A DNA stretch of 64,000 nt from an uncultured Nitrospiraceae bacterium (GCA_964402555.1 CAYOCT010000001.1:204049-268048); one strand, 5' to 3'; positions 6,955 to 55,000 are shown, counted from the first letter of the stretch. Program-made: numbers and translations. Notes: generated by a model from the letters alone, not told the origin.

Positions 6955-6979
6955 AGCGATCTATCTCCCGCTGGTGGTT

Positions 6980-8044: not shown

Positions 8045-8290
8045 GCCTTACGCTCCCGCACCCGGGCTATTACCATTGGAAAAGACTTTCCGAAGATAGA
8101 TGTTCGCAGAAACAAAGGTCCGAGGATCGCGTTTCATCCTCCGTATCCGTGTCGTTTTTGCGGCCGTCATTAACGTAGCCTCTTGTCCCATCAGGTGCTT
8201 GATGTTGTAGTTGATGATACGGTCCAGTTCTTTGTCCGTAAAATCATTGTGTTCGACAAAAATGTAGTCGATTCTATCGAGCCCAAAAAC

Positions 8291-18265: not shown

Positions 18266-18344
18266 AACCCCCAGGCCCTTCTTGCCGCTTTGTGTATGGA
18301 ACGAAGCCAGGACATTCCTTGGCATCAACGACTGGAGGAAGCAA

Positions 18345-33516: not shown

Positions 33517-36600
<3,084 letters not shown>

Positions 36601-38011: not shown

Positions 38012-38045
38012 TGGATTCCTCCTAACGCGGGGCATGTTCGCCCCG

Positions 38046-38711
38046 TCAGTCAACTTGTACGACGTGTTTTCCTTGTCTTCGCTTATGACCGTGAATCGCG
38101 GTGAAAAGAGCGACGTATGCTCCACCCCCAAGGACCAACACGGCCAAGTACCGCATCTCCTTGCCAAGAAGCATGACTGCGAGTGCTGAGAACATGGCAA
38201 ACAAGGCAGCATTCATGAGCCAACGCCCGGCTAGGATAAAGCCACTCTTGGGATAGAAGAAGCCCCAGTGCTTGATAACTTGGTGCGAAGCTGAATGGAA
38301 GCAGATCATCGCGAACGTGAAACCAAAGAGGGCGATCGTCATGAGCCAGATGGTGCGCTGGGCCGTGGGGGACAGGGGACCATCTCGAGAAAGAAACTGA
38401 AGCAAGGACGCAAAGAGGAAACCGTCAAAGATCGCAATCATCGCGACGGACGCTTGATAGATATTGAACGACTCGGCCACGTGATCTCGAAGGTCTTGCT
38501 TCGGATTTGACTCCTCTCGCGCACTTTTTCGCACAATAGCAACTCCCGCCATTTCGTTACCAGCATAGTTTCCTGCGCGCGGGAAATCAAGGATATGCGA
38601 GACACGGAAATGGGCGCAGTTCTGCGCATATGAGTAAGGCGTTCCGGACCATCCCGGCTCAGCTCTGGACACCTTTTCCAGGGCCGCCGTCACGTGCTTG
38701 CAGAACATCAA
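38046..38711 (-). CDS. Multi-pass membrane protein, hypothetical
   Basis: Several hydrophobic segments (LMTIALFGFTFAMICF, LFAMFSALAVMLLG). Confidence 0.5.
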   Translation of the reverse strand: MMFCKHVTAALEKVSRAEPGWSGTPYSYAQNCAHFRVSHILDFPRAGNYAGNEMAGVAIVRKSAREESNPKQDLRDHVAESFNIYQASVAMIAIFDGFLFASLLQFLSRDGPLSPTAQRTIWLMTIALFGFTFAMICFHSASHQVIKHWGFFYPKSGFILAGRWLMNAALFAMFSALAVMLLGKEMRYLAVLVLGGGAYVALFTAIHGHKRRQGKHVVQVD

Positions 38712-39119
38712 AGGGATGTACGTGCTGGCCCGGGACCGATCCCTGAGTGTCCCGTTTATCTTGCGCCTGAGTGTTCGTATGACCTTACAGTCAGCTCGGA
38801 CCGAAAGATTTATATCCCAGCGTTCATTACCGGCCTGTAACTACACAATTCGCGGCTCTGAAGTATCGGCAAAGCAGCGCATTCGCGCTCATGCCGGTGT
38901 TTCACCGCGACCAACCCATCAGGGCTACCGCAGCACAGGCACCCGCAAGGGAAGTCCGGCTGACGCCCACAACCTTCATCGAAAGGAGATGAGCATGAAC
39001 CATCGAGACCCTGAGCGGTCTCCGACGGATGATTCCGTCGACAACCCAAATTTGGAGAGCGATAGCTCTCACTGTTTCTGAATGCATAACAACTCAGATC
39101 AAAGAAAGGAACCAACGCT

Positions 39120-39590
39120 ATGGTTATTCGAACGCAATGCAAGAAATGCGGCGTGACCATCAAGCTGGACTTCGGCAACCTGACCAAGGAAGAAGCTTTG
39201 GCGGTTGCCGAAAAGATGGACTGCGCGCCGCGCGAGTGTCCGGGGATGCATGTGGAGCTTGGAGGCTGGAAAACCCTCTATGATCTCGACAATGCCATTC
39301 ATCGGGCCTATGACCTGGGCGAGGGCGAAGAGCCTGAGCCGGTCATCACAGACAAGGAGTACGTGGACAAGCTGCTTGCCGAGGGCAGGGACGTCATTGA
39401 CGGCGGACTCAACACAGTTCCGGAACTGAACCTGCCGCGCCTTCACGATCTTCCCGGTCTGGACCACATGGGGTTCGGCGATTTCAAGAACGCCACCCAC
39501 CTGTTTCTCCGTTGCGACAGCCCGCGGGGCACGCGTTTCTACAATCGTGTCGAGACTGCGGACGTGCAAGCTGTCGGCAATCCCGCCTGA
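39120..39590 (+). CDS. Hypothetical protein
   Basis: 156-aa ORF. Confidence 0.4.
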   Translation: MVIRTQCKKCGVTIKLDFGNLTKEEALAVAEKMDCAPRECPGMHVELGGWKTLYDLDNAIHRAYDLGEGEEPEPVITDKEYVDKLLAEGRDVIDGGLNTVPELNLPRLHDLPGLDHMGFGDFKNATHLFLRCDSPRGTRFYNRVETADVQAVGNPA

Positions 39591-39781
39591 TCTCTTCCCG
39601 CCTCAGTTTTCACAATCACTCGCATTTGCCAAGAACTGAGATTCAATCGTCAACCTCCATACGATCGTCTCTTCGCACGCCCGTTCGGGGATACGAACGG
39701 ACGACCGTGTGGCACAACCCGTATCGGCCCGACAGGACAACCATGGCCTGTCGGGCCTTTCAACAAAGGAGGTGTTTAAGA

Positions 39782-40633
39782 ATGAAACTTTTCGGACATG
39801 CACAAGAAGTGGGTCAACGTATTGTGGAAGCTTTCAGACAACCGGACCGGCTGCCTGTGGCGCTCGCGCCAATCTTCATCCGCCGCAAGGACGACGTTCC
39901 CTGCCGGAAATGGTCCTGGCACAACCAGCTCATTGCTGCGTTGTGCGGCACCACCGACGCGCGGGGCTTTCGCCAATGGGATGACGTCAAGCGGAAAGTC
40001 AAGAAGGGCTGCAAAGCCATCTGGATTCTGGCTCCTTGCGTCAAGAACATCAAGGAAAAGAACGCCAGAGGTGAGGAAGTCGAGCGGCGTGTGCTGTTCG
40101 GATTCCGTGGCATCCCCGTGTTCGCGGTCGAGGACACGGAAGGCGTGGCTTTGCCAGCGTCGGATGACCGGTATGATTCCTGGGTTCGGGAGCTTCCATT
40201 ACTGGAAGTTGCCAAGGCCTGGGACATCACTGTCGGCACGTACACCGGCAGCGAAACGACGCCGCTCGGGTATTTCCAATACGGATTCGGAAACCAAGCG
40301 GTCATGCTCGGCGTAGAAAACCTCAGCACCTGGGCGCACGAGATGGTCCATGCCGCCGACCACCGCTTGGCCGAAGGCACGCAAAGCGGCCGCGCCTACA
40401 AAGAGATCGTCGCGGAACTCGGCGGCGCCGTGCTCCTCGAGTGTCTCGGTATGAGTAACGATGCCGATCTCGGCGGGGCGTACAGCTACATCCAGCGGTA
40501 TGCCGAGGAAACGGGCAAGGACGTGGTTCGAGCCTGCATCGAATTGCTGGACCGCGTCTGCAATTGCGTAAAGTTGATCCTGGATACCGCGGAAACGCTG
40601 CAACAACAGCAAGAGGTCGTTGTTGCCGCCTGA
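39782..40633 (+). CDS. ardC: ArdC-like antirestriction protein (N-terminal ssDNA-binding domain plus zincin HExxH domain)
   Basis: RBS AAGGAGG. Motif WAHEMVHAADHRL. Confidence 0.7.
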   Translation: MKLFGHAQEVGQRIVEAFRQPDRLPVALAPIFIRRKDDVPCRKWSWHNQLIAALCGTTDARGFRQWDDVKRKVKKGCKAIWILAPCVKNIKEKNARGEEVERRVLFGFRGIPVFAVEDTEGVALPASDDRYDSWVRELPLLEVAKAWDITVGTYTGSETTPLGYFQYGFGNQAVMLGVENLSTWAHEMVHAADHRLAEGTQSGRAYKEIVAELGGAVLLECLGMSNDADLGGAYSYIQRYAEETGKDVVRACIELLDRVCNCVKLILDTAETLQQQQEVVVAA

Positions 40634-40709
40634 TCTATTCACACCAACCAAGGCCCGGCAGGAACCCAATGCCCTGCCGGGCCGAATATTTTCAGGAGGT
40701 GAACCAATC

Positions 40710-41075
40710 ATGAACATCCGACCCATCACGCGCGAGGAAGCGAGAATCCGCGTTCTCGCCGAACCTGATCATGTTCCCGTGGAAGGCAACGCCTCTGGTT
40801 CCGGTGATGACGATTTCGACCGGGAAGTCGAGCACAACATCCTGTGTCGACTTCAGCAGGGTGACGTTTGGGCATGGGCGGCCGTTACGGTCGTCGTAGC
40901 TTGGTGCCATTTCGAGGGCAGAGCCCATCTTGGCTGCTGCTCCTACGCGGACGAGGATGACTTCAGACAGCCCGATGGCTACTTCGACGACATGGTCAAC
41001 GAAGCCTTGGAGGAACTCAACAAGAGCATTTCCGAGGCGTATCAGCGAATCAAAGAACGGGAAATGGCGGCGTAG
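40710..41075 (+). CDS. Hypothetical protein
   Basis: RBS CAGGAGGTG. Confidence 0.45.
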   Translation: MNIRPITREEARIRVLAEPDHVPVEGNASGSGDDDFDREVEHNILCRLQQGDVWAWAAVTVVVAWCHFEGRAHLGCCSYADEDDFRQPDGYFDDMVNEALEELNKSISEAYQRIKEREMAA

Positions 41076-41158
41076 CCCTTTCCCAGATAGAACATGAACC
41101 GGCCCGGTGATGACTCACATGCCCCACCGGGCCACAACTGTTTATGGAGGAACCAACT

Positions 41159-41461
41159 ATGAGCACGAAACAAGACATGCGGTTTTCGTTGGGCCAGATC
41201 GTGGCCACGCCCGGCGCACTCGAAGCGCTGCAGCGGAACAACGTCACCGGTTTCGACTTCTTGCGCAGGCATGCCTCAGGAGACTGGGGCATTGTTTGCG
41301 AGGAAGACAAACAAGCCAACGAACAGGCGCTCACAACCGGCGCCCGGCTGATGAGCGCGTACTTCCTGCCGGATGAGACCAAGCTGTGGATCATCACGGA
41401 AGCGGCCGACGAAGCGGGGAAGCGTGTCGCAACCACGATGCTGCTGCCGGACGAGTATTGA
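41159..41461 (+). CDS. Hypothetical protein
   Basis: RBS TGGAGGA. Confidence 0.45.
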   Translation: MSTKQDMRFSLGQIVATPGALEALQRNNVTGFDFLRRHASGDWGIVCEEDKQANEQALTTGARLMSAYFLPDETKLWIITEAADEAGKRVATTMLLPDEY

Positions 41462-41496
41462 AGCCGCTGATGCGCAACCGCCGGAGGATAACCCAA

Positions 41497-41736
41497 ATGG
41501 CAAAGATGTATCCGAAACAAGCCGTGGACATTGTTCAAAAGCTCCTCGGCCAGCGTGCCAAGAAACCAGGTCAAGACCCTTTGGGGCTGTTATCCCCGAA
41601 GCAAGTCCAGGCCATCACGTTCCTGGCCGACTTCGTCGATGAGGTCCGGCAGGCCAGGGATCTCGTCAGCGTCATAGAGCGCCTGTTTGACGAGGGCGTC
41701 ATCTATGAAGAAGACGAGGCGACAAACACGGGATAG
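41497..41736 (+). CDS. Hypothetical protein
   Basis: 79-aa ORF. Confidence 0.4.
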   Translation: MAKMYPKQAVDIVQKLLGQRAKKPGQDPLGLLSPKQVQAITFLADFVDEVRQARDLVSVIERLFDEGVIYEEDEATNTG

Positions 41737-41749
41737 GAGGTGATTCCCT

Positions 41750-42307
41750 ATGAAGACCGTTACGGAAACCATCACGAACATCGTCTATCAGTCTGAGTTC
41801 CTGCCAAATGTCCGTTCGATCAATCCGGCGTTCGCTCGTATCATCGCATGGGCGGACGACCATCCGGTCGTATGGCGGGTTGTGACTGAGCGCAGGAGTA
41901 AGGCCTTTGGCCTGGGTTCTTGCGAATACATTGGCTGGGCACAGAAGAGCAAAGAACCGGACGCGATTCTCGAGCGGGTCTGGCACATGCACGAGCTCGG
42001 TGAAGGTAAGAGTCCGTACCATGACCGGGACTCGATCTTCGTGTGGCGAGCCAAATTCACCCTGGAGCACTACCAGGACAAGAAGTTTACCGGCGGGTTC
42101 TTCCAGCAACACGACGCGAAGTATCCGCGGTCGTGTCTCACACTGGATTACACGCCCGAGACCTTCAGCGAGGTGCTGGACCGGTTCTGCGCCTGGATGG
42201 ACCGCGCCTACGACACCGATCACGTGACAATCAACAAAATGACTGTCCGCACATTCCCTGGAAAGGAGGCGATGCCATGCCCGACAACGCTTGCTTTGAC
42301 GAAGTGA
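41750..42307 (+). CDS. Hypothetical protein
   Basis: 185-aa ORF. Confidence 0.45.
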   Translation: MKTVTETITNIVYQSEFLPNVRSINPAFARIIAWADDHPVVWRVVTERRSKAFGLGSCEYIGWAQKSKEPDAILERVWHMHELGEGKSPYHDRDSIFVWRAKFTLEHYQDKKFTGGFFQQHDAKYPRSCLTLDYTPETFSEVLDRFCAWMDRAYDTDHVTINKMTVRTFPGKEAMPCPTTLALTK

Positions 42308-42570
42308 GGAGGTTCGCGGAGTCCGAACAGGGCCGGCAATTCCTGGAAGGAATTCGCGACCATCTCAAAGGCCGCACCATCGATGAGGTCTCGTTTATCA
42401 ACAGTGGTGAAGGCTTCACGACCATTCTCCGTCTGAGCAATGGCCAGTGCTACGCCTTCAACGACGAAGAACTGTTCCTGGAAACCCTGCGCGAGCAGTT
42501 CAGCGGCCTGTTCCGTGAAATCGCGCACAACAACACACTCGCAAGGAAAGGAGATGAACACGATGAGTAA
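42277..42570 (+). CDS. Small hypothetical protein, paralog of 42867..43157
   Basis: RBS AAAGGAGG. LEGIRDHLKGRTIDEVSF here versus LEEIRSMLKGRTITDLSF in the paralog. Confidence 0.5.
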   Translation: MPDNACFDEVRRFAESEQGRQFLEGIRDHLKGRTIDEVSFINSGEGFTTILRLSNGQCYAFNDEELFLETLREQFSGLFREIAHNNTLARKGDEHDE

Positions 42571-42862
42571 TCGAGCATCGCTGGAACGAACCCTGTTCGC
42601 CGGCAATGGCGATAACGGCGGCTGGGGCTGGCGAATTTACGACGACTACTTTCGCAGCTTCGCGGACGATCACGAAGAGACCGAGGTCCCCAAAGACCCG
42701 CTGCAACTGCTAACCAAAGCCTGCGCCGAAGCAACCCCAGAGGAGCGCCTCTTCTTTGAGGACCTGCTGACCCAAGGCAAAGGTATGCGCATCAACGAGT
42801 CCTGGCACGAATTCGAGGAAATCGAACCCGCGCTTCGAGCAGGCCTGGAAAAGGAGGAATAA
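42563..42862 (+). CDS. Hypothetical protein
   Basis: RBS AAGGAG. Confidence 0.4.
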   Translation: MSNRASLERTLFAGNGDNGGWGWRIYDDYFRSFADDHEETEVPKDPLQLLTKACAEATPEERLFFEDLLTQGKGMRINESWHEFEEIEPALRAGLEKEE

Positions 42863-42866
42863 CCCC

Positions 42867-43157
42867 ATGGGCGATATCTGCAACATGAGCGACATCGACC
42901 GTTTTCTAAGATCGCCGGAAGGACAGGCGCATCTTGAGGAGATCCGCTCGATGCTCAAGGGCCGGACAATCACGGACCTAAGCTTTTCGAACGAGGTCCA
43001 GTGTGTGGAGACGACACTGCACCTCGATGATGGCGAGACGTTCGTGATTTATCAGCCGTCATTGGATGTGGACGCGTTGCGCGAAGAGTTCGCGGACGTG
43101 ATCCAGCGCGAGTACTACGTGGACTACCCCGAGCGCAAGAAGGAGGCTGAGACATGA
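42867..43157 (+). CDS. Small hypothetical protein, paralog of 42277..42570
   Basis: See the paralog entry. Confidence 0.5.
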   Translation: MGDICNMSDIDRFLRSPEGQAHLEEIRSMLKGRTITDLSFSNEVQCVETTLHLDDGETFVIYQPSLDVDALREEFADVIQREYYVDYPERKKEAET

Positions 43158-43369
43158 GCAAGCGCTATATGGTAGGCATTCGCGAAGTGCACGTGCGGTT
43201 CTATTCCGTGAAGGCGGCGAGCGAGGACAATGCCAAGGAACTTGTCAACCAGCGGGATTCTTCCGTAGTTGATGAGAACTTTCTCGAGTACTCGCATGAG
43301 ATGGCCCAGGACACCTGGTCTGTGGAGGAAATCCCGGACAAGGACCACTCGGAGGACGCACAGCCATGA
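43154..43369 (+). CDS. Hypothetical protein
   Basis: Overlapping start and stop with its neighbours. Confidence 0.4.
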   Translation: MSKRYMVGIREVHVRFYSVKAASEDNAKELVNQRDSSVVDENFLEYSHEMAQDTWSVEEIPDKDHSEDAQP

Positions 43370-43605
43370 GTATCCGCAACACTATGCTCGAAATTGCCCG
43401 CAAGGCAATCCTGCACCGGGCGTCTCTGGACGGATACGCGCCGGACGAGTACGACCCCGCGGAAGACGGCGAAGGATACGTCGTGTCGCTGCTCATTGCG
43501 CTTCGGCACTGGTGCGAAGCGCATGACATCGACTGGCGGGCGGACATCGAACGGGCAGAAGCCTTGTTCACTGAAGACTTGGCCGAGTCTGAAGCTATTC
43601 CCTGA
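43366..43605 (+). CDS. Hypothetical protein
   Basis: 79-aa ORF. Confidence 0.4.
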   Translation: MSIRNTMLEIARKAILHRASLDGYAPDEYDPAEDGEGYVVSLLIALRHWCEAHDIDWRADIERAEALFTEDLAESEAIP

Positions 43606-43708
43606 GACGCACACTCAGTGCTACACCCTGCAAGGGGCGGAACTGTGCCTTAGCCGGCATGGGGCCGCCCCTTGTCTTTCTCTCTCAACAGAAAGGAGTC
43701 CCAATGAT

Positions 43709-44323
43709 ATGCACCCAATTACCCCTTGCGGCGCGCTGTGTATCGGTAATGGGAACCGCAAGGTCGGGCGAGCCCTAACCTTCAGCCTACCGAGCCGACT
43801 CACGTGTCCAGGCGCAAGTACATGGTGTCTGCGCCGATGTTATGCATTCCGGTACGAACGCATCCGGCCCTTGTGCTTGGATGCCTACGGCCGGAATTTG
43901 TTTCTCTCGCTGGATGCAAACCGCTTCGCGGAAACCATGCTGGCCATGCTTCCGCGCGGTCTACGTGGCGTGCGCATCCATGTAAGCGGTGATTTCTACT
44001 CGCCGACCTATGCGGACATATGGACGAGGATTTGCCAGGCGCGCCCGGACATCGTGTTCTGGTCGTACACCCGTTCATGGTCCGTGCCTGCGATTCTGCC
44101 ATCTCTCGATGCGCTTCATCGCCTGGCGAATGTCCGTCTGTTCGCATCTTGCGATGAAACCATGGCGCTGCCGCCTGCCGGTTGGCGCACCGCCTTCGTA
44201 GAAGAAGATCCGCGCGCGCATGGCGTCCATTGCCGGAAACAGCAGGGACAGGCCGAGTCGTGCTTGACGTGCGGCTATTGCCTGTTTTCCGACACCGGTC
44301 ACGTGGTCTTCAAAGTCCACTGA
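43709..44323 (+). CDS. Hypothetical Cys-rich protein
   Basis: RBS AAAGGAG. Confidence 0.4.
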   Translation: MHPITPCGALCIGNGNRKVGRALTFSLPSRLTCPGASTWCLRRCYAFRYERIRPLCLDAYGRNLFLSLDANRFAETMLAMLPRGLRGVRIHVSGDFYSPTYADIWTRICQARPDIVFWSYTRSWSVPAILPSLDALHRLANVRLFASCDETMALPPAGWRTAFVEEDPRAHGVHCRKQQGQAESCLTCGYCLFSDTGHVVFKVH

Positions 44324-44395
44324 CCCCTTTCCCGAGTCATCAACCGCAACCGTTGGAAGCCCCGCAGGGTTCAGCATGACCTGCGGGGCTTCCGC

Positions 44396-44896
44396 ATGAA
44401 TGGAGATACAACCATGAACCAAGACTCGAATACGTACACGATCCCCGTGTACAGACTGCAACTCGTCCAGGAAGGACAAACGACGACCATGCCTGTGATC
44501 GGCCCGGCTGAACTGGCTTTCCATCTCAAGGAAATCGCCACAGCCGACCGTGAGCATATGGTCGTCATTTTCCTGGACACCAAGAACCGGCCCATCGGCC
44601 GGCAAGTCGTCAGCATCGGCACCCTGAATGCCACACTCGTTCATCCCAGGGAGGTTTTCAAGGCCGCACTGATTGCGGGCGGCAGCGGCACCAATTCAGT
44701 GATCTTGACGCATAATCACCCGAGCGGCGACCTAACACCTTCGCGTGAAGATGATGACGTTACCCGCAAGATCGCCCGGGCTGGCGCCCTACTCTGCATC
44801 CCGTTGCTCGATCACGTCATCCTTAGCCCGGACGGCGGATTCTACTCATACAAGAACGACCGTCCGGCCTGCCTCGATGGAGGTGGCTCGCTATGA
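44396..44896 (+). CDS. radC: RadC-like JAB/MPN domain protein
   Basis: JAMM motif ILTHNHPSGDLTPSREDDDVT. Confidence 0.8.
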   Translation: MNGDTTMNQDSNTYTIPVYRLQLVQEGQTTTMPVIGPAELAFHLKEIATADREHMVVIFLDTKNRPIGRQVVSIGTLNATLVHPREVFKAALIAGGSGTNSVILTHNHPSGDLTPSREDDDVTRKIARAGALLCIPLLDHVILSPDGGFYSYKNDRPACLDGGGSL

Positions 44897-46200
44897 AGAT
44901 CACGCTGGAAACCGTCCGCAGTATCCTGCGGGAATCGCTGGGACGCGAAAGTTTCGTCGCATCGTTCATCAGGTCGGTTGAAGAAACCGAGACCTGCCCG
45001 ACGGCATCAATTTCGTCCGAGGGCGTTCTCCAGTACAATCCCGCCTTCGTAACCAAGTACATCGCGTGCGACGAAGACCTGTTTTGCCTCGTCATGCACG
45101 AGATCATGCACCCCATGTTCGGCCACTTCATTTACAAGAGCGGCCCCCTGGAAGGCGTGGCGGCAGATATGGTCATTAACGCGAGCATCAGCCTGTTGTT
45201 CCAGGAAGCGTCCGCGTGTGGCAGCCTGTTCAGGAAGACCTACCAGCCCCTTGGCGTGGAAGGTCTGCTGCGGCCCTTGAGCCGGATGCACGACAGCCGG
45301 TACAGCAACCTGTACAACGTCTTCTATGGCAATAGCCACAGAGACGATAGGCTCACGACCGGCGAAGTCATCCAAGCGCTCAAAGTGCTAACCCCATCGT
45401 ACGACCCGACAACGCTTCTGCTGATCGGTTCGCACCCAACCGGCGGAGTCAAAGACACTTCCGATGGCTCCGGTCTCATTGGATTGCCCGCCGAATCCCT
45501 CTGCCGAATCGCCGAAAATCTCAAACGGGCGGCCAAGTATCCCAACAACCGGATTGCCGGCCAGGGAGAGAACCTCTACGAGTTGTTTGTGGAGGCCATC
45601 AAGACCCACCTGTCCATCCGTAAGGTGCTCTTGCAGAAGTTCGCGACCAAGCAAAAGGTCGACCGGTTCAAGCAAACCATCAACCGACCAGCGTTAGGCG
45701 TCTCGCCAATCCCGTTGCATCCATCGAAGCGGGACTTCGTTTTGCTCGCCGCGGGCATCCCGCCGTTCCACTACCACAACCACGTGCAACGCGTGACGAC
45801 AAAGAAACACGGACTCGCTGTTTACTTGGACGTGTCTGGCAGCGTCAATGAGCACCTGCCGGAGATCGTGGGTGTCTTGTCCAGCCTCAAAGCGGAACTG
45901 ACCTCGATCTTCCTGTTCAGCAATAAGGTCGTCGAGATTCCGTTCAAGACGCTGCTTGCTGGCCACGTCCAGACCACCTACGGCACAGACTTCGATTGCA
46001 TCGCTGAATCCATTGTGGAACGCGACTTGGACAAGGCCGTCATCTTCACGGACGGTTATGCGGGTCTACAGCCCGAAAAGTCCGAGCGGCTCAAACAGCG
46101 GCGCATGTGCACCTTGACGGTCCTATTTGGCGGCAAGGCGGATTGCGAAGAGTTCGTGCCGTTCGGAGACGTCGTCCAACTCGCCGACATCACGGAATAG
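44893..46200 (+). CDS. Putative zincin metallopeptidase (DUF2201-like) fused to a vWA domain
   Basis: HEIMHPMFGHF motif. vWA-like C-terminal half. ATGA overlap with radC. Confidence 0.65.
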   Translation: MKITLETVRSILRESLGRESFVASFIRSVEETETCPTASISSEGVLQYNPAFVTKYIACDEDLFCLVMHEIMHPMFGHFIYKSGPLEGVAADMVINASISLLFQEASACGSLFRKTYQPLGVEGLLRPLSRMHDSRYSNLYNVFYGNSHRDDRLTTGEVIQALKVLTPSYDPTTLLLIGSHPTGGVKDTSDGSGLIGLPAESLCRIAENLKRAAKYPNNRIAGQGENLYELFVEAIKTHLSIRKVLLQKFATKQKVDRFKQTINRPALGVSPIPLHPSKRDFVLLAAGIPPFHYHNHVQRVTTKKHGLAVYLDVSGSVNEHLPEIVGVLSSLKAELTSIFLFSNKVVEIPFKTLLAGHVQTTYGTDFDCIAESIVERDLDKAVIFTDGYAGLQPEKSERLKQRRMCTLTVLFGGKADCEEFVPFGDVVQLADITE

Positions 46201-46211
46201 GAGGAAGCCCC

Positions 46212-46382
46212 ATGCTTTACAGAGTCGTTTGGGAAATAGACATCGACGCCGACTCGTTCGAGGACGCCGCGCAGAAAGCGTTGGCCATTCAGCGCGATCC
46301 GGAGTCCATCGCGACCTGCTTCGTCATCACGGACGAAAAAGGGGATAGCCGCAGTGTGGATCTTGATGACGAGAGTCCGTAA
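46212..46382 (+). CDS. Small hypothetical protein, 56 aa
   Basis: RBS AGGAGGAAG. Confidence 0.4.
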   Translation: MLYRVVWEIDIDADSFEDAAQKALAIQRDPESIATCFVITDEKGDSRSVDLDDESP

Positions 46383-46490
46383 GACGAGCGTCTAGAGCCG
46401 TATCCACAACCATATGTGATGGGGAGATGCCTCCAGAATGGGACATCTCCCCTTCATCATTCACGAAACAACTTACAGGAGGTGAAAACC

Positions 46491-46685
46491 ATGAAAGTGT
46501 TCGTAGCCGTCGAAACGTTCCAGGGTGTCGTTCATGACGCCACGGCGTATATGACGGAGGAGTCAGCCCGGCGCGCCGAAAAGGCGTGGCTGGACCAGAT
46601 GGGCATCAAGAGCCAAGATGCCCGCGAATGCAAATCGGACGATGGTACGAGTTTCAGTGTCATGAAATGTGACCTGAAACCGTAA
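46491..46685 (+). CDS. Small hypothetical protein, 64 aa
   Basis: RBS AGGAGGTG. Confidence 0.45.
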   Translation: MKVFVAVETFQGVVHDATAYMTEESARRAEKAWLDQMGIKSQDARECKSDDGTSFSVMKCDLKP

Positions 46686-46783
46686 CCGCCGCACGATCAG
46701 GGCTCTGTGTTTCTGGGAGACGTCCCGCTGTTGGGATGTCTCCCTTTCTTCATTTCCGAAACCAAAACAAGGAGAGACAAATC

Positions 46784-48292
46784 ATGATTATGCAACAACT
46801 CGGCATTTACGGATGGAACGAAGCAGATGAGAATCTCGTTCTGGCTTCGCTTCTCACCGGCGACCCGCTCTTGCTTATCGGCAACCACGGGTGCGCCAAA
46901 ACCCATGTAGCCAACAAGGTAGCGCAGGCCCTGGGACGTAAGTTCCTGGTCTACGACGCCTCGAAGGCTATGTTCGAAGACGTGCTCGGCTACCCCAACA
47001 TCGAGCAGCTCAAGCACGGCGTCGTCGAGTACGTTCCAAGTCCGGTCACGATCTGGGACAAGGAACTCGTGCTCATCGACGAACTCAACCGCGCGGTACC
47101 GGAACTCCAGTCCAAGTGGCTGGAGATCATCCGTTCGCGCAAGATCATGGGATTTCCGACCCAGGTCAAATGGGTCTGGGCGGCCATGAATCCCATGAGC
47201 TACTCAGCCACGAACGCCCTCGACGCGGCCCTCGTTGGCCGGTTCGCGTTCTTCCTCTATCCGCCGGATGTGCTCCAGATGGATGAGGAAGACCGGATTC
47301 GTGTGGCGATGCACATCAACGGCGACGACGCGCCGAGCTTGTCCGAATGGACGGGTGGCGTGTCTGCGGGCACTGTGCCCAAGGCATGCGTGGCGGACGT
47401 CGGTGCCAAGATGCGTGATACGCTCATGGTGGCCGGTCGGCACTTCCTGCGTTTGCGCGAACAGATGTCGACGCTGGCCGAATTCCTGGCCAAGTTCGCC
47501 GACCTACTCATGCGGGAAACCAAGGGCGAGGTGGCCCTCGACGGCAGACGGCTGGGTTTCATTCACCGGAATCTGCTCGCCAACCGCGCCGTCGAATTGG
47601 CGAAAGCCGAGGTCTTTCAGGCCCAATTGCCGGGCTTCGTACAGTCGGCGCGCTACGTGGTGCAGTCCAGCATCCCGGTCGGACTTAACGACGAGGCGCT
47701 CAAACGGGAAGAGGCAGTGCACAAGATGGAGATCTGCTTCGACCTGCTTTCGAGCTACTTCGAAGAAGGCGCGGAACTGACTCGCGTGAACCTGGTCTAC
47801 GAGTTGTTCACCACGCCGGACCTGATGCGCAAGGCCGAACTGTTGCTAACGCAGCCGCTAGGCGAAATGGCGCTCTCCAAGGCGTGGACCGATCTCATGG
47901 CCGGGGAAAAGGATCTGACTCTGCTCGCCTACACAGCGTTGCAGGTCGAGGCGCGCCGACCGGGGACGATCCCGCAAGAGTTGCTTGCGTCGCTTTCCGC
48001 GAAGATCATGCCGGGAGAACTCAGCACCAAGTGTATCTCCCGGCTCGATGGCGACGCGGTCGAGTACATCGATGAAGTCGAACAACTGCTCGATCAAGGC
48101 ACGGACCTGGCGCGGCTCGTGGCTTACCACCGTGTCTCCGAACTGGTGGACACCGGCAATATCAACCCGCGCACGATCAAAGCTATCGGCGATGCGATCC
48201 TCGATGACATTCGCATCTTCGAAGCGTTGTTGGCAGGCAAGGCGTCTGACGCGACACACGCGATTCAATGCTTGGGAGGGAAGGCAGCATGA
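46784..48292 (+). CDS. MoxR-like AAA+ ATPase
   Basis: LLIGNHGCAKTHVANKVAQALG and LVLIDELNR. RBS AAGGAGAG. Confidence 0.7.
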   Translation: MIMQQLGIYGWNEADENLVLASLLTGDPLLLIGNHGCAKTHVANKVAQALGRKFLVYDASKAMFEDVLGYPNIEQLKHGVVEYVPSPVTIWDKELVLIDELNRAVPELQSKWLEIIRSRKIMGFPTQVKWVWAAMNPMSYSATNALDAALVGRFAFFLYPPDVLQMDEEDRIRVAMHINGDDAPSLSEWTGGVSAGTVPKACVADVGAKMRDTLMVAGRHFLRLREQMSTLAEFLAKFADLLMRETKGEVALDGRRLGFIHRNLLANRAVELAKAEVFQAQLPGFVQSARYVVQSSIPVGLNDEALKREEAVHKMEICFDLLSSYFEEGAELTRVNLVYELFTTPDLMRKAELLLTQPLGEMALSKAWTDLMAGEKDLTLLAYTALQVEARRPGTIPQELLASLSAKIMPGELSTKCISRLDGDAVEYIDEVEQLLDQGTDLARLVAYHRVSELVDTGNINPRTIKAIGDAILDDIRIFEALLAGKASDATHAIQCLGGKAA

Positions 48293-49668
48293 ATACTCTG
48301 CAAACCTTCAAACTCTGGCTTGAGCCGGACCGGGATATCCCGCAGTTTCGTCGTTTGCGTTGGGCAGCGGAAAGCGTGTCTGTCCAGGATGTGTTGCTGA
48401 CTGGGGTCCATCCCTGGTCGGGGCCGGACAAGCACAGCACACTGCCTGAAGCCATGCTACGAAATGTCAATGAAGAAACGGCAAGGCTCCCGGAACTGGT
48501 TCAATTCGGCTATTGTGGCGACGTGAATGTGCTCTCCGGCTACGCGTGGGACAAACCGTCGAGGTTCGATCGGGTCCTGCAGGCAATTCACGAACACGTC
48601 TACTTCGTGGATGACTTGTCGTACCTCGATCTGCTCAACATAGCCAAGGCGAGGTTGCGGAACATGTGGACGCATTCGACGGTCCGGGAAATGGCCAGAG
48701 ACGCTCACCCTGGATTCCAGGAGCTGCGGCAGTTTCTGAAAAGCAAGGACAAGCAGATCAAGCTATCCAGCTATGAGGACGTCGACCAGTATGACCTGGC
48801 CAAGGTGCTCACGCTGGACGACTTCGAGCAACGCGACAACCTTGTCATTTCGCACGCCATTCCCACGTTGAACTTCCGCAAAGCCGCGCTTCTGAGCAAG
48901 GTGACGGACGATCAAGGCCGGCTGCGCCTCGTGCCGGAAATCCGCCACGTGACCCTAACGGAAACGGCGCTGAAGCCGGACTATGTTCACACAGTCTGGC
49001 ATGTCGCGCGTGAGGGTTCGATGTGGCGCTTCCGGCCGGACATCGGCGACGCTAAGACTAAGCGGCAGCACACTCAGAAGTTTGCAGCCCAATGGCGGAC
49101 GGATGATGGGCGGTTGTGTTTCACAACCACCACGGAAAAACTCGTCGCGATGGTCGAGTGCAAAGCCGTTGAGCCGTCGTTTCCGAGCCTGAACTACAAC
49201 TCAGCGGAACATGGTCCTACAGCTTGCGCCGTCGTGGATTCCTCGCACGTCAAGGCCTTTCATATCGGGCGGTTTGCGCGCGCAGGAACCACTGGCGACC
49301 AGCTAAAGGATATCCTCCATAAATACGAGGTGTCCATGACCGGCAACAAGGATCAATTGCTCCAGAAATTGGCCAAGCTCGCAGCGACCAAATACCGGGA
49401 ACGATTGCCCGAGATGGATCGGTTCTTCGCACGGCATCGTTTTGTTCGCATGCAGAGTGCGCCGTCGAGTGTAGCCGAGTTGCCGCTCATTGAGGACCTG
49501 GCCTACCTGCGGAACCTCGTTCTGACGATGTACGCAGTCAAACATATGCGTGGCGATGCTATTCTCGAAGCCTCCCACCAGAACAACACGTACACGGACG
49601 AGGAACTGGCATTTGCCTTGGTCACCGGAAAGGTCGGCCTGCAAGGGGCCTTCCTGCGCGTCGCCTGA
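48289..49668 (+). CDS. Hypothetical 459-aa protein with SAP-like motif; third partner of the vWA-MoxR module
   Basis: ATGA overlap with the MoxR gene. GNKDQLLQKLAKLAA. Confidence 0.5.
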   Translation: MNTLQTFKLWLEPDRDIPQFRRLRWAAESVSVQDVLLTGVHPWSGPDKHSTLPEAMLRNVNEETARLPELVQFGYCGDVNVLSGYAWDKPSRFDRVLQAIHEHVYFVDDLSYLDLLNIAKARLRNMWTHSTVREMARDAHPGFQELRQFLKSKDKQIKLSSYEDVDQYDLAKVLTLDDFEQRDNLVISHAIPTLNFRKAALLSKVTDDQGRLRLVPEIRHVTLTETALKPDYVHTVWHVAREGSMWRFRPDIGDAKTKRQHTQKFAAQWRTDDGRLCFTTTTEKLVAMVECKAVEPSFPSLNYNSAEHGPTACAVVDSSHVKAFHIGRFARAGTTGDQLKDILHKYEVSMTGNKDQLLQKLAKLAATKYRERLPEMDRFFARHRFVRMQSAPSSVAELPLIEDLAYLRNLVLTMYAVKHMRGDAILEASHQNNTYTDEELAFALVTGKVGLQGAFLRVA

Positions 49669-49676
49669 CGCACGAC

Positions 49677-49716
49677 AAAGGGGACGATCCCAACCTGGGA
49701 ACCGCCCCCTTTTTTG
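49677..49716 (+). terminator. Rho-independent terminator
   Basis: GGGGACG...CGCCCCC stem followed by TTTTTT. Confidence 0.5.
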
Positions 49717-49881
49717 GACTGGGGTGTCGGGATAATGCCGACAATGGCTAAGCAGGGGGCATCCTGCATGTGCATGAGAACCGGTGAAAGCGCTTCCGGG
49801 GCTTGCCATGGGTCCCGCGAGTGGAACCGGCGGGCGAGCGAAGAATAGAATACGGCGTGAAAGCAGAGGCAACTTGCTGGT

Positions 49882-50478
49882 TTGAGTCTTAGTGTGGAAC
49901 GAGAACGAATAAATAGCCTTGACGATCTTCTTGACGCGATTCACCCGTCGCGCGCGCACGATGTCTACCGACGGAAAATAGACGAAGCTTTGCGCACTTT
50001 CCCCTTCCAGTCGTTCCAAGTTGACAATTGGGGTTCGTGTCAATCTTTTGTTGCGCGTTTCTTTGCGCGTATCAATGGAGCCATCATGGGCCCCCAGTTT
50101 GAGGAAAGCCCCGACCTCGCCATGGTTACATTTCGCAATGTTTTCCGGTCAAGATACGGCGAGCTCCCCGAGAGAGCCTTATTCGAAAGAATCATCTTCG
50201 GCCACGAGAGTGGTATGAATGGCTTTGTGCGAGAGGCGGTCGACACCGCAGTCCAGTTCTTTGCACACACACATATAGCCAACCGAGTAGACCAATACAT
50301 GGACACTCTGTCTGACGATGAGTATTCCGCAGCGGGTGATGCGTACGTGGCGAAGTGGGGCCATCTTCTTCCAAGCGAGATGATTAGTAAAGGTTCACAT
50401 CATTATCCCCCAGCCCTGCGCAATGTTCTCAAACAGCACACCGAACTGCTCCTGAGACTGCGGAGCATCCCTAAATGA
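49882..50478 (+). CDS. Hypothetical protein, tandem paralog 1 (non-ATG start TTG at 49882 or GTG at 49894)
   Basis: About 60% identical to 50519..51106 (FDEALRTFPFQSF, GMNGFVR, AKWGHLLPSE). Confidence 0.5.
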   Translation: MSLSVERERINSLDDLLDAIHPSRAHDVYRRKIDEALRTFPFQSFQVDNWGSCQSFVARFFARINGAIMGPQFEESPDLAMVTFRNVFRSRYGELPERALFERIIFGHESGMNGFVREAVDTAVQFFAHTHIANRVDQYMDTLSDDEYSAAGDAYVAKWGHLLPSEMISKGSHHYPPALRNVLKQHTELLLRLRSIPK

Positions 50479-50518
50479 ACGAGCGGTGTGACTTGTAGAC
50501 CGCATGCAAGGACTTGGC

Positions 50519-51106
50519 ATGGAACAAGAAGGAAAAAGAATCAGCAGCCTTGAAGAGCTTCTTGAGACAATCGATCCCTCGCGTACATACGACGTGTTTC
50601 GACGGCGATTCGACGAGGCCTTGCGCACTTTTCCTTTTCAGTCGTTCCGGGTCAATGACTGGGCTTCCTGCGATCTTTTTGTCGCCAGTTTATTTGCACG
50701 AATCAATACCGTCCTTTTGCAGGGGGCATCGGACAACAACCTCGATTTGGGCTTGGTTACATTTCGAAACGTTTTCCGATCGATGTATGGAGATCGCCCC
50801 GAAAGGCTGCTGTACGAGAGAATCATTCATGGTCACGACAGTGGCATGAATGGCTTTGTACGCGACGCCATCGACGCGGCCGTGGAGTTTTGTGCTGCAG
50901 TGCCCATAGCCAATCGCGTGGACGAGTACATCGACAGCCTGTCGAACGACGAGTATGATACCGCCGCTCGATATTATTTGGCTAAATGGGGACACCTTCT
51001 TCCAAGCGAGATCACGGACAGGGGCTTGCCACGTTTCGCGCCACTTCTGCGCCAGTTCCTAAAGCAGCATCCGAGATCCGTCCTGCAGATGCGAAAAATC
51101 CGTTGA
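50519..51106 (+). CDS. Hypothetical protein, tandem paralog 2
   Basis: See paralog 1. Confidence 0.55.
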   Translation: MEQEGKRISSLEELLETIDPSRTYDVFRRRFDEALRTFPFQSFRVNDWASCDLFVASLFARINTVLLQGASDNNLDLGLVTFRNVFRSMYGDRPERLLYERIIHGHDSGMNGFVRDAIDAAVEFCAAVPIANRVDEYIDSLSNDEYDTAARYYLAKWGHLLPSEITDRGLPRFAPLLRQFLKQHPRSVLQMRKIR

Positions 51107-51172
51107 TGCACGACGCCGAGACCCTGTCTGCCGGTCTTTTGGGCGCAACGATTTCGCTTCTTCTGACAACGG

Positions 51173-52024
51173 CTAAAGTGGCTGAATACTCGTATTCAGC
51201 ATCTCTACGTTCGTAAACATCTTTGGGAAAACGGAGAGAAGATATTCCTTGGGGGAACTTCCAGGAAGGCTCAACTGATGAGGAATTTCGCCGGCGGTCA
51301 GAACGGCAATGCCTGAATCACGCTGGACGAGCACAAACGCCAGTATCCAGTAATAACTTATGCGAGGAGTTGAAGAGTCCTTGCGCTCGAGAGCCCCTGT
51401 CGGCAATCCGTAAAGCTCCCTTACGTGCGATGTACCATTCTCTATGAGTGCGTCAATGGCCTTATATCCGTCCGTCCGTATAGGTGAGAAGACTTCGCAG
51501 CGTAAGGCTCTCTGTTTCTCTCTTAATACCCACGCGCCAGCGAGAGGGATAGCTTCCGCAGCCTTCTGGCCACACCAAAACGTGGAAGGAAGCAGATCGC
51601 CTGTAAGCCCGTTTATGATGAAGTCCCGGTCGTGACTTGACTCACATGCGTATTCGCCGTACTGCGTAGCCCGTTCCCATTGTTTGCCTCGCAATCTGTA
51701 GTATCGCCCCTCATTGCAGACAATTCCATGCGGGATCAGCCCTTCAAGCACACGCTCAATGCGGTCTTCGCCAATACCGAGGTACTCGTCGAGTTCGTCC
51801 AGCGTTGCCCGATCAAGAATCACCATGAGCTTCAGAACCGTGCGTTCTATCAGGCCGAGTGGCTGCGTATTCCGCTGTCGAACGGTGTGGGTCGCCTGCA
51901 AAATTGGGAAGATAACAGGAATAGCTTGCACGGGCGCCCTATGTCCGCTCTGAGGACAGTTGGCGAGAACGTTGTCCAGGGCCTTCTGCCACGGGTGGCG
52001 TTTCGAGGGCACTTCACTCGCCAT
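51173..52024 (-). CDS. wHTH (MarR-like) domain protein coupled to the SF1 helicase
   Basis: LIERTVLKLMVILDRATLDELDEYLGIGEDRIERVL. 11-nt overlap with the helicase stop. Confidence 0.55.
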   Translation of the reverse strand: MASEVPSKRHPWQKALDNVLANCPQSGHRAPVQAIPVIFPILQATHTVRQRNTQPLGLIERTVLKLMVILDRATLDELDEYLGIGEDRIERVLEGLIPHGIVCNEGRYYRLRGKQWERATQYGEYACESSHDRDFIINGLTGDLLPSTFWCGQKAAEAIPLAGAWVLREKQRALRCEVFSPIRTDGYKAIDALIENGTSHVRELYGLPTGALERKDSSTPRISYYWILAFVLVQRDSGIAVLTAGEIPHQLSLPGSSPKEYLLSVFPKMFTNVEMLNTSIQPL

Positions 52025-55000
52025 AGTTCTTTTCCCATACAGGGCAGACTTTCCCTGTATCCAACACATAATTCCTGTAGCGTCTAAGAACTTCCCGGCC
52101 CTTTTCGTGTCTGCTTAGTCTCTCATCACAGAGGGCGCTGACGTCTCCCACAAGAATCAACATGCATCGGGCCCTTGAAAAGGCAACGTTCATGCGCTTC
52201 AAGTCCAGGGCAAAATCAAGATAGGTTCCCAAGAACCCTCTACCTCTGCATTGTCCACATCTCTGTCCGCGGGCGGTCATGCCCTGTCCATGGCACCCTC
52301 GGCAGGGCTTCGGGCTGCGGGTAAAGGATACGATGATAATGTCGCATTCGCTGCCCTGGAAACTGTCGACTGAGTCTACAATCGGTCGTATTCGCTTGAA
52401 GGGGTACTTTGCATTACGCTGAAGCTGTCTCTCGATGGCGGCTTTTTGAGCCGCATACGGGGTGATTACGCCGATACTGACTTCTCGAGTGTGCTCAAAC
52501 GTTTCCGCTTTCTCAAGGATGCTGCAAACGATATTGGCCTCGAGGTCGTTGCGATAGCCTGTTCCGACCCGTTCTTCATGACGGTCCTCGCCATACTCCA
52601 TGGTCGAAATCAGGCATACAGGTTTGGTGAACTTGCCGAAGTTAATGGTACCGTGCGGGGCTTCGAGGGGGGATCTGAGATTTCCCTCATAGAACACTTC
52701 GCTGATGAACGCCCCGATGGTGCGATGCATGCGAAACTGCCGATCGAGCATCACGCCACATCCGCCGGCGAAACTTGGCCAGAGTTCCGCAAATAGACTT
52801 GAATCGAGCAAACAGAGCGGATCGTCATCGTTGGCGGCGGGACATGCCGGATGCCGTTCAGCGTCGGCAACACAATCCACATTCATGCTGCCGTTAGGCG
52901 GGAGCTGCATGTCGTCACCGATCAGGAGAAGCCTCCTGGCATGGAAGGCCGGAATGAGTGTCTCAGGCGTCGTGGCTTTTCCTGCCTCGTCGATGATGAC
53001 AAGGTCGATACTCTGAGGTCTTCCGTTATGCAGTTCCTTCCATGACGCAAGCCCGACACACGTTGCAAGAAACACCTGGACGTCATCCATCAGGAACTTA
53101 CTGATTTCTCCTGACTCACGATTCGCGATTACCTTGTCGCGCCATTCGCGTATGACCTCGTAAATGGACTGAGTACGCGCGAGCTCCGCTGCGTATTTCT
53201 CAACAAGGGCGTTCTGGTCGTCTTCCGTCCAGGATTCCAGGCTTCTGCCCTCTTCACTCAGAAGGTCGCGTAGCGGCATGAGGGGATTGAAGTATTCTTC
53301 ATCCAGGGCGCTGCGCTCCTTGCCGAACCGCTGCAGATCCCTGGAAAACTCCTCCTCAATGACGCGTTCACGCTGGGACAAATGGAGGTAGATCTGCTCA
53401 GTACTCTTCTGATGGGCAGCGGTCTCATGGGCGACAGCTTCGGCGGCAACCATCGCCTCATGTTTGCCAGAGAGAAGCGCGGCCTTTGCCTGGTCTGCCT
53501 TGTCCATGTAGGACTTGAGTTTCGTTTCTAGGGCTGTTTTTGAGGAGAGACGCTCAGAAAAGATGCCCGCAAATTGGGAGACGAGGGTAGGTATTTCTGT
53601 CAGGAACCGGCGGTTGTCAATGCGAGTCCGAAGCTGCGTTTGGCGTCGCGTGTTGGCGGCCAGAATCGCCTCTTGTGCGCTAACGCGCTTTTGGCACTCG
53701 TCCCGGCTGGTCTGTAGCGCGTTCATCCTTTGTGAATGGGCCGTATTCAACGCCAACTGATCGTTTCCGGCTTTTGCTCGAGCACTTGCCAATTGCTCAT
53801 GACGTATCCTCGTGGACTCGTCTCCTTTACGCTGGATTTGAGCAATCCGTGCTCGGTATTCCCGGAGTGCAAGAGTTACGCAGTACCAGGTGTCAACGCT
53901 GTGTTTCAGTTCTTTGCAGCGAACGCGAAGAGACTGGAACTTCTTGTCCGCGCGTTCTCCCAGTAACGAAAGCTCGCGATCGATGTCGAACGAGCATCTT
54001 TGGTCGATATCCTCGCGTCTCTCCGCCCGGGCGTAACGCAGCATACGGCACTTGTCCTCTTCCAGCCGTTCCATCACGTTCACGACGGCCTGATGCGTCT
54101 GGCTGCATACCAGGACACGGCCACCGCGCTCAACGATGTGGCGAACCACCTCGACAATGACGGAGGTCTTTCCGGTCCCGGGGGGACCTTTGACCAGAGC
54201 GACGGGGACTTCATCACTCAGCGCAAGCTGAACCGCCTCGGCCTGCTGTGGGTTTCCTGCAATGTGCGGGTCCTTGAACTCCAGGGAGGGGAGAATCCGG
54301 GGTCTTGCGGGCGGAGATACCATCGCGCGGAAGACAGGATGTTCCCAATTGATGGCATCACACCACTGGCGGACGTAGGCCTTCTGTTTTATTTCCGCGC
54401 CAGACAATCGTCTGGGCTGGGCTCGAAAGACTTCCGGGATACTTTCCTTGTCGACGGTGTTGGGGAAGCGCAATCGAAGGTACAGCGTTTTCCTGTTTTC
54501 AAAGCGGCCGCTTTTCAACTCTACCTCATTGATGTTGCGTCGTCCGCCAGGTCCTTGCTGAAGTGAGGAAATCGCAAGAGGCTCTCCTGCTTGCATTTGT
54601 TGCCCGGTGAACAACTGGAGGAGCGTTCCCTCAGGCCAGGGCATTTCCCCGCTGCTCTTCCACTCGGGTGTCGGCAGGACTTTGAAGTCATAATCGATAT
54701 ATCCCGGAGTCTCGCCAACCACGGCGGCGCGATCCCCGAGGAGCAAGGCCGGGCTCTGCTCGTCAGGCTGGATGAAATGGTCGAGGCATTCGAGAAGGCC
54801 CTTCCAGTGTTGCGCGGCCATCTTGCAGGCAACGTTGTCGAGGAGGAAACCTCTGGCTGACGACGCCTTTAGTACATCATTCAGAAACGTCTCTACGGCA
54901 ACAGGGCTCGACACGTCGCATCTTCGGAGCCAATCAAAGACGGTAACGTTTGAAGGGTCGATCTCAACGTGTCTGACGCCGTGCTCTCCGTTCTCCTTGA

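Follow-up and report, generated by a model that had tools for sequence, protein, structure and literature searches.

The window, a 64,000-nucleotide stretch of DNA from an uncultured Nitrospiraceae bacterium (GCA_964402555.1, CAYOCT010000001.1:204049-268048), raises the question of which genes between positions 44,396 and 49,716 form a functional unit and what this unit could do for the mobile element that carries it. An initial annotation, made from the sequence alone, had read the region as one operon resembling NTP-dependent conflict systems and comprising a radC gene, a gene for a metallopeptidase with a vWA domain, two tiny open reading frames (ORFs), a gene for a MoxR-type AAA+ ATPase and a gene for a protein with a SAP-like motif. 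All of these genes were recovered as described by ORF listing and hidden Markov model (HMM) scans. The true unit, however, is a three-protein module that consists of the zinc metallopeptidase-vWA protein, the MoxR AAA+ ATPase and the 459-aa SAP-domain protein, and this trio is co-inherited on conjugative or integrative elements of the Hydrogenedentota and at least seven other phyla.

A three-protein module with conserved gene order

The core genes and their characteristic motifs are located in the window as follows.

44893..46200, + strand: gene for a zincin metallopeptidase fused to a C-terminal vWA domain (435 aa), assigned by profile, motif and structure checks
45097-45111, 45124-45126 and 45829-45843, + strand: HExxH motif, third histidine and DxSxS motif of the metal ion-dependent adhesion site (MIDAS), respectively, within the metallopeptidase-vWA gene
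46784..48292, + strand: gene for a MoxR-type AAA+ ATPase (502 aa from the likely start), with Walker A at 46880-46903 and Walker B at 47078-47083
48289..49668, + strand: gene for the SAP protein, the third component (459 aa), with the SAP motif at about 49297-49374 and a start that overlaps the MoxR stop (ATGA)

A profile scan with the metallopeptidase-vWA protein over species-representative genomes yielded 47 related loci, referred to by L numbers, which belong to at least eight phyla, including Hydrogenedentota, Nitrospirota, Ignavibacteria, Thermodesulfobacteriota, Zixibacteria, Verrucomicrobiota, Cloacimonadota and Elusimicrobia, with the nearest relatives in Hydrogenedentota. The initial annotation had staked its proposal on synteny in relatives, and the metallopeptidase-vWA, MoxR and SAP-protein genes were found in this order in every sufficiently long locus, with the metallopeptidase-vWA gene always upstream of MoxR; none of the loci with enough sequence lacks one of the three genes. 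The conserved layout consists of the metallopeptidase-vWA gene, zero to three small acidic ORFs or insertions, the MoxR gene and the SAP-protein gene. Mean identities to the window proteins are 54% for the metallopeptidase-vWA protein, 68% for MoxR and 41% for the SAP protein, and these identities are correlated over 27 loci, with a Spearman coefficient of 0.86 for every pair. In nearly all loci the end of the MoxR gene overlaps the beginning of the SAP-protein gene, mostly by 4 bp, as at the ATGA of positions 48289-48292 in the window that had been pointed out initially. MoxR and the SAP protein are translationally coupled and represent the tightest pair of the trio. The vWA-peptidase gene is the looser link and lies upstream of a conserved terminator-like hairpin. 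Several genomes contain two to four copies of the module on separate contigs, as expected for mobile-element families.

The assignments of a DUF2201-like HExxH peptidase with a vWA domain, a MoxR ATPase and a SAP motif survived the HMM, motif and structure checks. The window metallopeptidase-vWA protein scores under the curated Pfam cut-offs (22.5 versus 26.4 bits for DUF2201 and 15.8 versus 23.2 bits for DUF2201_N); among 16 family members, 15 match DUF2201_N (best 8.4e-8), 14 match VWA_CoxE and nine match DUF2201. The zincin residues H69-E70-x-x-H73...H78 and the MIDAS residues D313-x-S315-x-S317, T365/D366 and D387 are invariant in the family alignment, and a match to phrog_1314 spans the full length of the protein (5e-21). 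The AlphaFold2 (AF2) model has a mean predicted local distance difference test score (pLDDT) of 67 and contains two domains with values of 63-94 (63-88 within the vWA domain) and a disordered-looking linker at residues 183-306; in its peptidase domain, the HExxH helix comes after a sheet of three strands. A Foldseek search with the C-terminal domain of the model returned the vWA domain of CMG2 (5e-5), integrin alphaM (3e-4) and NorD (6.6e-3), each with a probability of 1.00, so that the predicted structure confirms this domain as a vWA fold. The layout of about 430 aa with an N-terminal peptidase is constant across the 120 listed of 550 homologues, and neither the alignment nor the model contains an extra domain C-terminal to the vWA domain. 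A search of PDB sequences with the alignment profile gave no match, and none of the three core proteins is represented by a model in NCBIfam.

The MoxR protein of the window matches AAA_5 with 46 bits (6.6e-12; cut-off 22) and AAA_3 with 38.9 bits (1e-9; cut-off 27), and its matches among PDB sequences are the AAA modules of midasin and the MoxR structure 2R44. The bpMoxR score is 20.8 bits with a cut-off of 27, and a precomputed PF20030 match is present on a minority of the homologues, the family of which counts roughly 400 members. The residues G33-x-H-G-x-x-K39-T40 (Walker A), D99-E100 (Walker B), N136 (sensor 1) and G152-R153-F154 (arginine finger) are invariant in 16 MoxR sequences. Strong conservation also extends over some 320 aa at the C-terminus, to which no domain could be assigned. 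The gene probably starts at position 46784, because the homologues comprise 494-502 aa; a start at 46736 was rejected, since the homologues begin at the position of 46784 and 46736 falls inside a hairpin. In L001/L037 (11459-13064) the MoxR gene was called as two pieces of 134 and 324 aa, which could reflect a frameshift or an assembly error.

For the SAP protein a longer reading of the ORF exists (48268-49668, 466 aa) beside the annotated form that starts at 48289. The window protein reaches 13.1 bits against the Pfam SAP family (cut-off 23.9), and 27 of 28 family members match it (best 7.7e-7); in divergent relatives the SAP domain was detected at 3e-7 and 1e-6. The AF2 model has a pLDDT of 90, and its residues 334-370 (approximate limits) superpose on the SAP domain of Tho1 over 37 residues with a root-mean-square deviation of 1.0 Å and a probability of 0.85. 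Outside the SAP motif, no significant match was obtained either with the model against the PDB (Foldseek) and BFVD or with the family profile against PDB sequences. The family forms 259 representative clusters in a library of 1.84 billion proteins, almost all of them with 455-480 aa or represented by fragments, and no informative extra domain occurs among these clusters. Likewise, a Pfam scan of the window protein and 28 family members detected SAP only, apart from one weak EAD4 match in a single member (E=0.18). The very divergent relative in L055 is encoded directly after a MoxR gene and overlaps it; that in L056 also overlaps an upstream gene.

The interval between the peptidase and MoxR genes

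The initial annotation had treated the region as one plain operon closed by a terminator. The following elements occupy the interval inside the module and its downstream end.

46212..46382, + strand: sm1, small acidic ORF (56 aa; isoelectric point (pI) 4.05), a variable accessory gene with a weak phrog_20551 match
46417..46456, + strand: hairpin after sm1 (-24.3 kcal/mol, z -3.4) with a T-rich tail and a GGGGAGATG/CATCTCCCC base that is shared with the hairpin upstream of MoxR
46488..46685, + strand: sm2, small ORF (65 aa, pI 5.2), a variable accessory gene
46715..46744, + strand: terminator-like hairpin (-28 kcal/mol, z -4.6), its 13-bp stem GC-rich and its tail T-rich, at a distance of 40 nt upstream of the start of MoxR
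49679..49715, + strand: compound hairpin followed by T6, an intrinsic terminator closing the conserved block (-20.7 kcal/mol, z -4.0)

The closing terminator was confirmed, its hairpin being far stabler than shuffled sequence, and the two tiny ORFs are real genes, as judged from their retention as proteins in 15 (sm1) and 19 (sm2) related loci. The sm2 gene is present in two copies in L006-L008 and L011. The distance between the metallopeptidase-vWA and MoxR genes varies from 15 to 5,153 bp among the related loci. In L051, a diversity-generating retroelement (DGR) cassette with a reverse transcriptase, bAvd and an FGE-sulfatase-type target is inserted between vWA/sm1 and MoxR (11812-14853), and the module is otherwise intact.

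About 22 of 40 loci (including L001, L007, L008, L011, L015, L016, L018, L020, L023, L026, L029, L030, L032, L034, L038, L040, L049 and L053) have at the corresponding position, 35-55 nt ahead of the MoxR start, a hairpin that shares the GGGGAGA...TCTCCCC base and the T tail. When 21 of these hairpins, preselected for having the structure, were aligned with RNAalifold, ten of 12 pairs kept their pairing via two-sided changes, and the covariation between loci falls in the inner stem. An Rfam scan of positions 38000-57000 detected nothing relevant and no family for this hairpin. A masking of the ribosome-binding site by its 3' arm was considered and discarded, since the complementarity present in the window does not recur elsewhere among the loci. 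The structure looks like a conserved partial terminator or RNA-stability element, which would adjust how much MoxR and SAP protein is made relative to the products of the upstream genes. Since this conserved terminator-like hairpin precedes MoxR by about 40 nt, a single uninterrupted operon is doubtful, and the variable distance to the vWA gene likewise speaks against this part of the initial annotation.

The same observations bear on whether the trio might be two units, with MoxR and the SAP protein as an independent pair and the vWA-peptidase, in the same way as RadC and the small ORFs, as merely another gene of the block without physical partnership. The variable distance of up to 5,153 bp, the DGR cassette of L051 and the conserved hairpin in front of MoxR would fit such an arrangement, as would the situation in L004, where the metallopeptidase-vWA protein is 69% identical to the window protein and MoxR and the SAP protein are 89% and 83% identical, a split that hints at recombination between the halves of the module. 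However, MoxR ATPases characteristically pair with a vWA partner, all sufficiently long loci retain the three genes, the divergences of the components are tightly correlated, and phages also keep MoxR and metallopeptidase-vWA genes adjacent. We regard a separation into two independent units as very improbable.

The upstream block and the mobile-element setting

The features preceding the trio in the window are the following.

39782..44323, + strand: co-directional upstream block (context) with an ArdC-like gene at 39782-40633, conserved small acidic ORFs and a GP88 gene at 43709-44323
44355..44393, + strand: perfect 14-bp hairpin (inverted repeat) between GP88 and radC (-34.8 kcal/mol, z -5.7), with no T-run after it
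44396..44896, + strand: gene for a short RadC-like JAB protein, an optional upstream neighbour (166 aa; PF04002 2e-36; phrog_10276 2.5e-37; HNHPSGD motif)

RadC had been counted as a member of the module, and its ATGA overlap with the metallopeptidase-vWA gene at 44893-44896 was indeed verified. It adjoins the trio only in about 11 loci, namely the window, L002-L005, L008, L010, L023, L033, L049 and L050, usually with a gap of -4 or +2 bp (34 bp in L033), and in L036 an ArdC gene lies between RadC and vWA. The place directly upstream of the metallopeptidase-vWA gene is taken by GP88 in about 11 other loci; the remaining loci have ArdC or unrelated genes there. RadC is therefore part of the surroundings and not of the module.

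The trio always forms the distal end of a co-directional block (39782-49668 in the window) that is syntenic in the closer loci L002, L005, L007-L009, L011-L013, L026, L027, L051 and L053, and all genes from 39782 to 51106 are located on the + strand. The GP88 protein matches PF17338 (1.3e-28), and the ArdC-like protein matches phrog_7245, annotated as 'anti-restriction', at 5e-12, with the homologous gene in L001 carrying PF08401 (ArdcN). The small acidic ORFs of the block have pI values of 4-5 and are conserved across loci; a Pfam search with the nine ORFs between the ArdC-like gene and GP88 detected nothing except one weak DpnD/PcfM-like match. The latter concerns a 71-aa acidic ORF at 43154-43369 (E=0.0099; the family is named for a conjugative-plasmid protein), and its neighbouring small ORFs, with pI values of 4.1-4.6, are likewise shared between loci but match no Pfam family. 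GC-rich hairpins similar to that in front of radC occur in the same block at 39726-39757 and 40652-40683.

The mobile-element setting suggested by the initial annotation was borne out. Backbone genes of the window encode Replic_Relax (18195-19286), a DUF87 ATPase (24494-26593, - strand), ParA, a Cdc6/ORC-like ATPase and a TrwB-like coupling protein (61493-63970), and distant loci are flanked by Replic_Relax, HerA/FtsK-like ATPases and integrases. What follows the terminator differs from locus to locus: the window has the genes for the P198/P200 proteins and a Mokosh-like pair, and other loci have CRISPR-Cas, PIN or secreted propeller proteins. The trio is therefore to be counted with the conserved block, not with this variable cargo.

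Directly after the terminator, tandem paralogues of 198 and 200 aa are encoded at 49882-51106, which have no counterpart in related loci; the 198-aa protein has no Pfam or PADLOC match and the 200-aa protein no Pfam match. They are followed by the Mokosh-like pair (51173-55928, - strand), in which a 1304-aa protein with N-terminal CxxCxGxG zinc-finger repeats matches MkoA (2.6e-98) and a 298-aa protein matches only the N-terminal winged helix-turn-helix part of MkoB (1.7e-5), the nuclease part seemingly being missing. Further away, a defence-island-like run at 5308-17048 (- strand) encodes Schlafen AlbA_2/HATPase_c_4, DUF3644, a 655-aa protein without assignment, an Eco57I/MmeI-type methyltransferase (1132 aa) and a protein with PLD and SNF2 helicase domains (1134 aa), and resembles DISARM or BREX. 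An IS21 IstB gene is located at 5-943, and a gene at 33517-36600 (- strand), divergent from the ArdC block, encodes a 1027-aa protein with BACON, reprolysin-like metallopeptidase and TrAA12-like matches.

Relation to known systems and a possible role

In PADLOC-DB 2.0 no match was found for RadC, the metallopeptidase-vWA protein, sm1, sm2 or the SAP protein, and MoxR gave only matches with E>0.01 (IetA, mad8). Protein searches of PLSDB with the metallopeptidase-vWA and SAP proteins detected no relative, a DNA-level plasmid search returned only a 123-bp radC match, and IMG/VR yielded no relative with the SAP-protein profile and only relatives of at most 29% identity with the vWA profile. Among the INPHARED phages, searched with the metallopeptidase-vWA protein as sole query, only Cronobacter phage CR9 was found, with 29% identity over the vWA domain. 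No paper mentioning both a SAP domain and MoxR was found in the literature searched.

The initial annotation had likened the genes to the predicted NTP-dependent conflict systems in which vWA-MoxR pairs have extra partners. Kaur, Burroughs, Iyer and Aravind described in 2020 four classes of MoxR-vWA ternary conflict systems, defined by VMAP, iSTAND, FtsH and beta-propeller components, with variable effectors C-terminal to the vWA domain, and proposed as general mechanism that the vWA domain captures a peptide and MoxR remodels the bound protein (PMC7159879). The trio shares with these systems a MoxR AAA+/vWA core that is encoded together with a conserved, faster-evolving third protein, and presumably also the logic of an ATP-driven switch acting on a vWA-bound partner. 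In contrast, its third protein is a SAP-domain protein without VMAP-C, iSTAND, FtsH or propeller signature, its vWA domain is C-terminal with a constant N-terminal zincin instead of N-terminal with variable C-terminal effectors, effector-associated domains are absent, and its genes, tied to an ArdC block, occur on mobile elements of phyla such as Hydrogenedentota and Nitrospirota. Since the defining features are absent and PADLOC returned no family, membership of the trio in the published ternary systems is not supported. That it works like one is a reasonable analogy, and the label 'conflict system' is reduced to the same status.

An element-borne defence or exclusion system would nevertheless be conceivable, in which the SAP protein senses invading DNA, MoxR-vWA provides an ATP-dependent threshold and the metallopeptidase acts as effector or activator. 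The ternary layout, a MoxR-vWA core plus a distinct third protein, fits the logic of PMC7159879, the third protein is the one that diverges fastest, several MoxR proteins of the family have weak precomputed bpMoxR matches, and defence systems are encoded next door. On the other hand, the absence of a PADLOC family and of VMAP, iSTAND, FtsH and beta-propeller signatures, the constant architecture of about 430, 500 and 460 aa without variable effector domains (259 representative clusters), the bpMoxR score of the window protein below the cut-off and the fixed position of the module within the ArdC/GP88 block, instead of movement among islands, render a defence function rather unlikely.

Two further groups of MoxR-vWA pairs are relevant for comparison. 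Group 2.2 jumbo phages carry a MoxR gene and a gene for a vWA protein with an N-terminal metallopeptidase, for which a role in assembly or processing was proposed (Iyer et al. 2021, PMC7824862). The phage pairs (group 2.2 jumbo and rV5-like phages; CR9 gp126/gp127; phrog_1297/phrog_1314) have the same metallopeptidase-vWA architecture beside a MoxR-type ATPase; the CR9 pair, unlike the trio, consists of two genes in opposite order without a SAP partner, the identity to the phage proteins is at most 29%, and the virion-assembly role proposed for the phage pair cannot apply to the trio. The second group comprises NorQ/NorD, CbbQ/CbbO, RavA/ViaA and CoxD/CoxE, with which the trio has in common a vWA partner that bears a MIDAS and an AAA_5/AAA_3 ATPase whose catalytic motifs are complete. 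The genes of these characterised chaperone pairs adjoin that of a metabolic client enzyme, and neither a peptidase nor a SAP protein accompanies them; the MoxR protein of the trio has the unassigned conserved C-terminus of about 320 aa.

With regard to these pairs, the trio could also be a dedicated chaperone-protease for the element's own relaxosome, replication or transfer apparatus, with the SAP protein binding the element's origin. Characterised MoxR-vWA pairs mature specific complexes (PMC7159879), NorD is among the structural matches of the vWA domain, the phage proteins provide a precedent for assembly or processing (PMC7824862), and the trio is linked to the element backbone. A second MoxR-vWA pair of the CobS/CobT type (AAA_5 and CbbQ_C; CobT and CobT_C) is moreover located beside the trio in L001 (5447-8466) and L029 (14585-17625). 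Against this, the trio sits with the ArdC-like and small acidic genes, the HerA-like gene and the coupling-protein gene being about 18 kb and 12 kb away, no client gene is consistently adjacent, and a housekeeping adaptor would not be expected to diverge as fast as the SAP protein does. We consider a function of this kind improbable.

The anti-restriction protein ArdC offers a different precedent. According to the ArdC study (R388/pSa; PMC7213743), ArdC acts in the recipient against HsdRMS and combines single-stranded DNA binding, by its ArdC-N part, with a metalloprotease. The trio, headed in its block by an ArdC-like gene, likewise combines a nucleic-acid-binding module with a zincin protease on a conjugative element. 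ArdC is a single polypeptide without ATPase or vWA domain, whereas the trio distributes predicted DNA binding (SAP), ATPase and protease over three proteins. Furthermore, Samuel et al. (2024, PMC11541004) described anti-defence islands in plasmid leading regions, with no mention of RadC, MoxR or vWA, and the block in the window resembles these islands in its uniform orientation and in the presence of a known anti-defence gene (ArdC-like).

On this basis we tentatively favour the reading that the trio is a DNA-tethered AAA+/protease module which aids the establishment of the element or counters host defence, and we rate its chance of being correct as somewhat below even. The reading draws on the synteny and co-inheritance of the genes, the intact catalytic sites, the fold and domain support, the linkage to the backbone, the literature precedents and the absence of a PADLOC defence family. 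The mechanism is modelled on the general MoxR-vWA scheme (PMC7159879) and on the ArdC precedent (PMC7213743). The SAP protein would tether the MoxR hexamer to DNA, either the incoming DNA of the element or DNA-bound host factors; the vWA MIDAS would capture a peptide of the target protein, ATP hydrolysis by MoxR would remodel the target, and the fused metallopeptidase would cleave it. The module would thereby perform in trans, and with ATP, what the neighbouring ArdC does in one polypeptide.

Several points weigh against this interpretation. The SAP protein is the fastest-evolving component (28-83% identity versus 51-89% for MoxR), and a fast-evolving sensor in a defence system would look alike; SAP motifs can also bind RNA or act as protein modules. 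The peptidase might process only its own polypeptide, and the internal hairpin could mean that the vWA-peptidase and the MoxR-SAP pair are expressed separately. Defence systems adjoin the module: the window has a Mokosh-like pair, and related loci have CRISPR-Cas and DruA. A Pfam search with the ArdC-like protein of the window gave no match, its assignment being based on PHROG and on the homology to the ArdcN-bearing gene of L001, and both the placement in a leading region and an early expression in the recipient are assumptions.

In eukaryotes, the DNA-dependent metalloproteases SPRTN and Wss1 work with the AAA+ unfoldase p97/Cdc48. The combination of DNA tethering, zinc protease and AAA+ ATPase is shared with the trio by analogy only; folds, ATPase clade and organisation differ, and no homology is claimed. 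A more far-reaching possibility, which we consider quite unlikely, is that the trio represents a new class of counter-defence machine, in which a SAP-anchored MoxR hexamer and the vWA-metallopeptidase would unfold and cleave host proteins bound to the incoming DNA, for example complexes of restriction or another defence, or else the relaxase that is covalently linked to this DNA. The module would then be a bacterial ATP-driven analogue of the pairs of DNA-dependent protease and AAA+ unfoldase, and the SAP protein would constitute a previously unseen fold family.

The trio is apparently an undescribed variant of the MoxR-vWA systems, the parts of which are familiar and the third component and context of which are new. 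MoxR-vWA pairs are widespread, and their mechanism is known for few of them. The trio unites an ATPase, MIDAS peptide capture, a zinc protease and predicted DNA binding in strict synteny on transferable elements of many little-studied phyla, in the part of these elements that also houses their anti-restriction genes. The SAP protein, with a pLDDT of 90 and no fold match in PDB or BFVD, lends itself well to structural and biochemical study. Should the module prove to be a defence system, the MoxR-vWA ternary systems would gain a fifth class. If, on the other hand, it promotes establishment, ATP-dependent proteolysis would join the anti-defence repertoire of conjugative elements, and the DUF2201-type peptidase-vWA proteins would be given a role.

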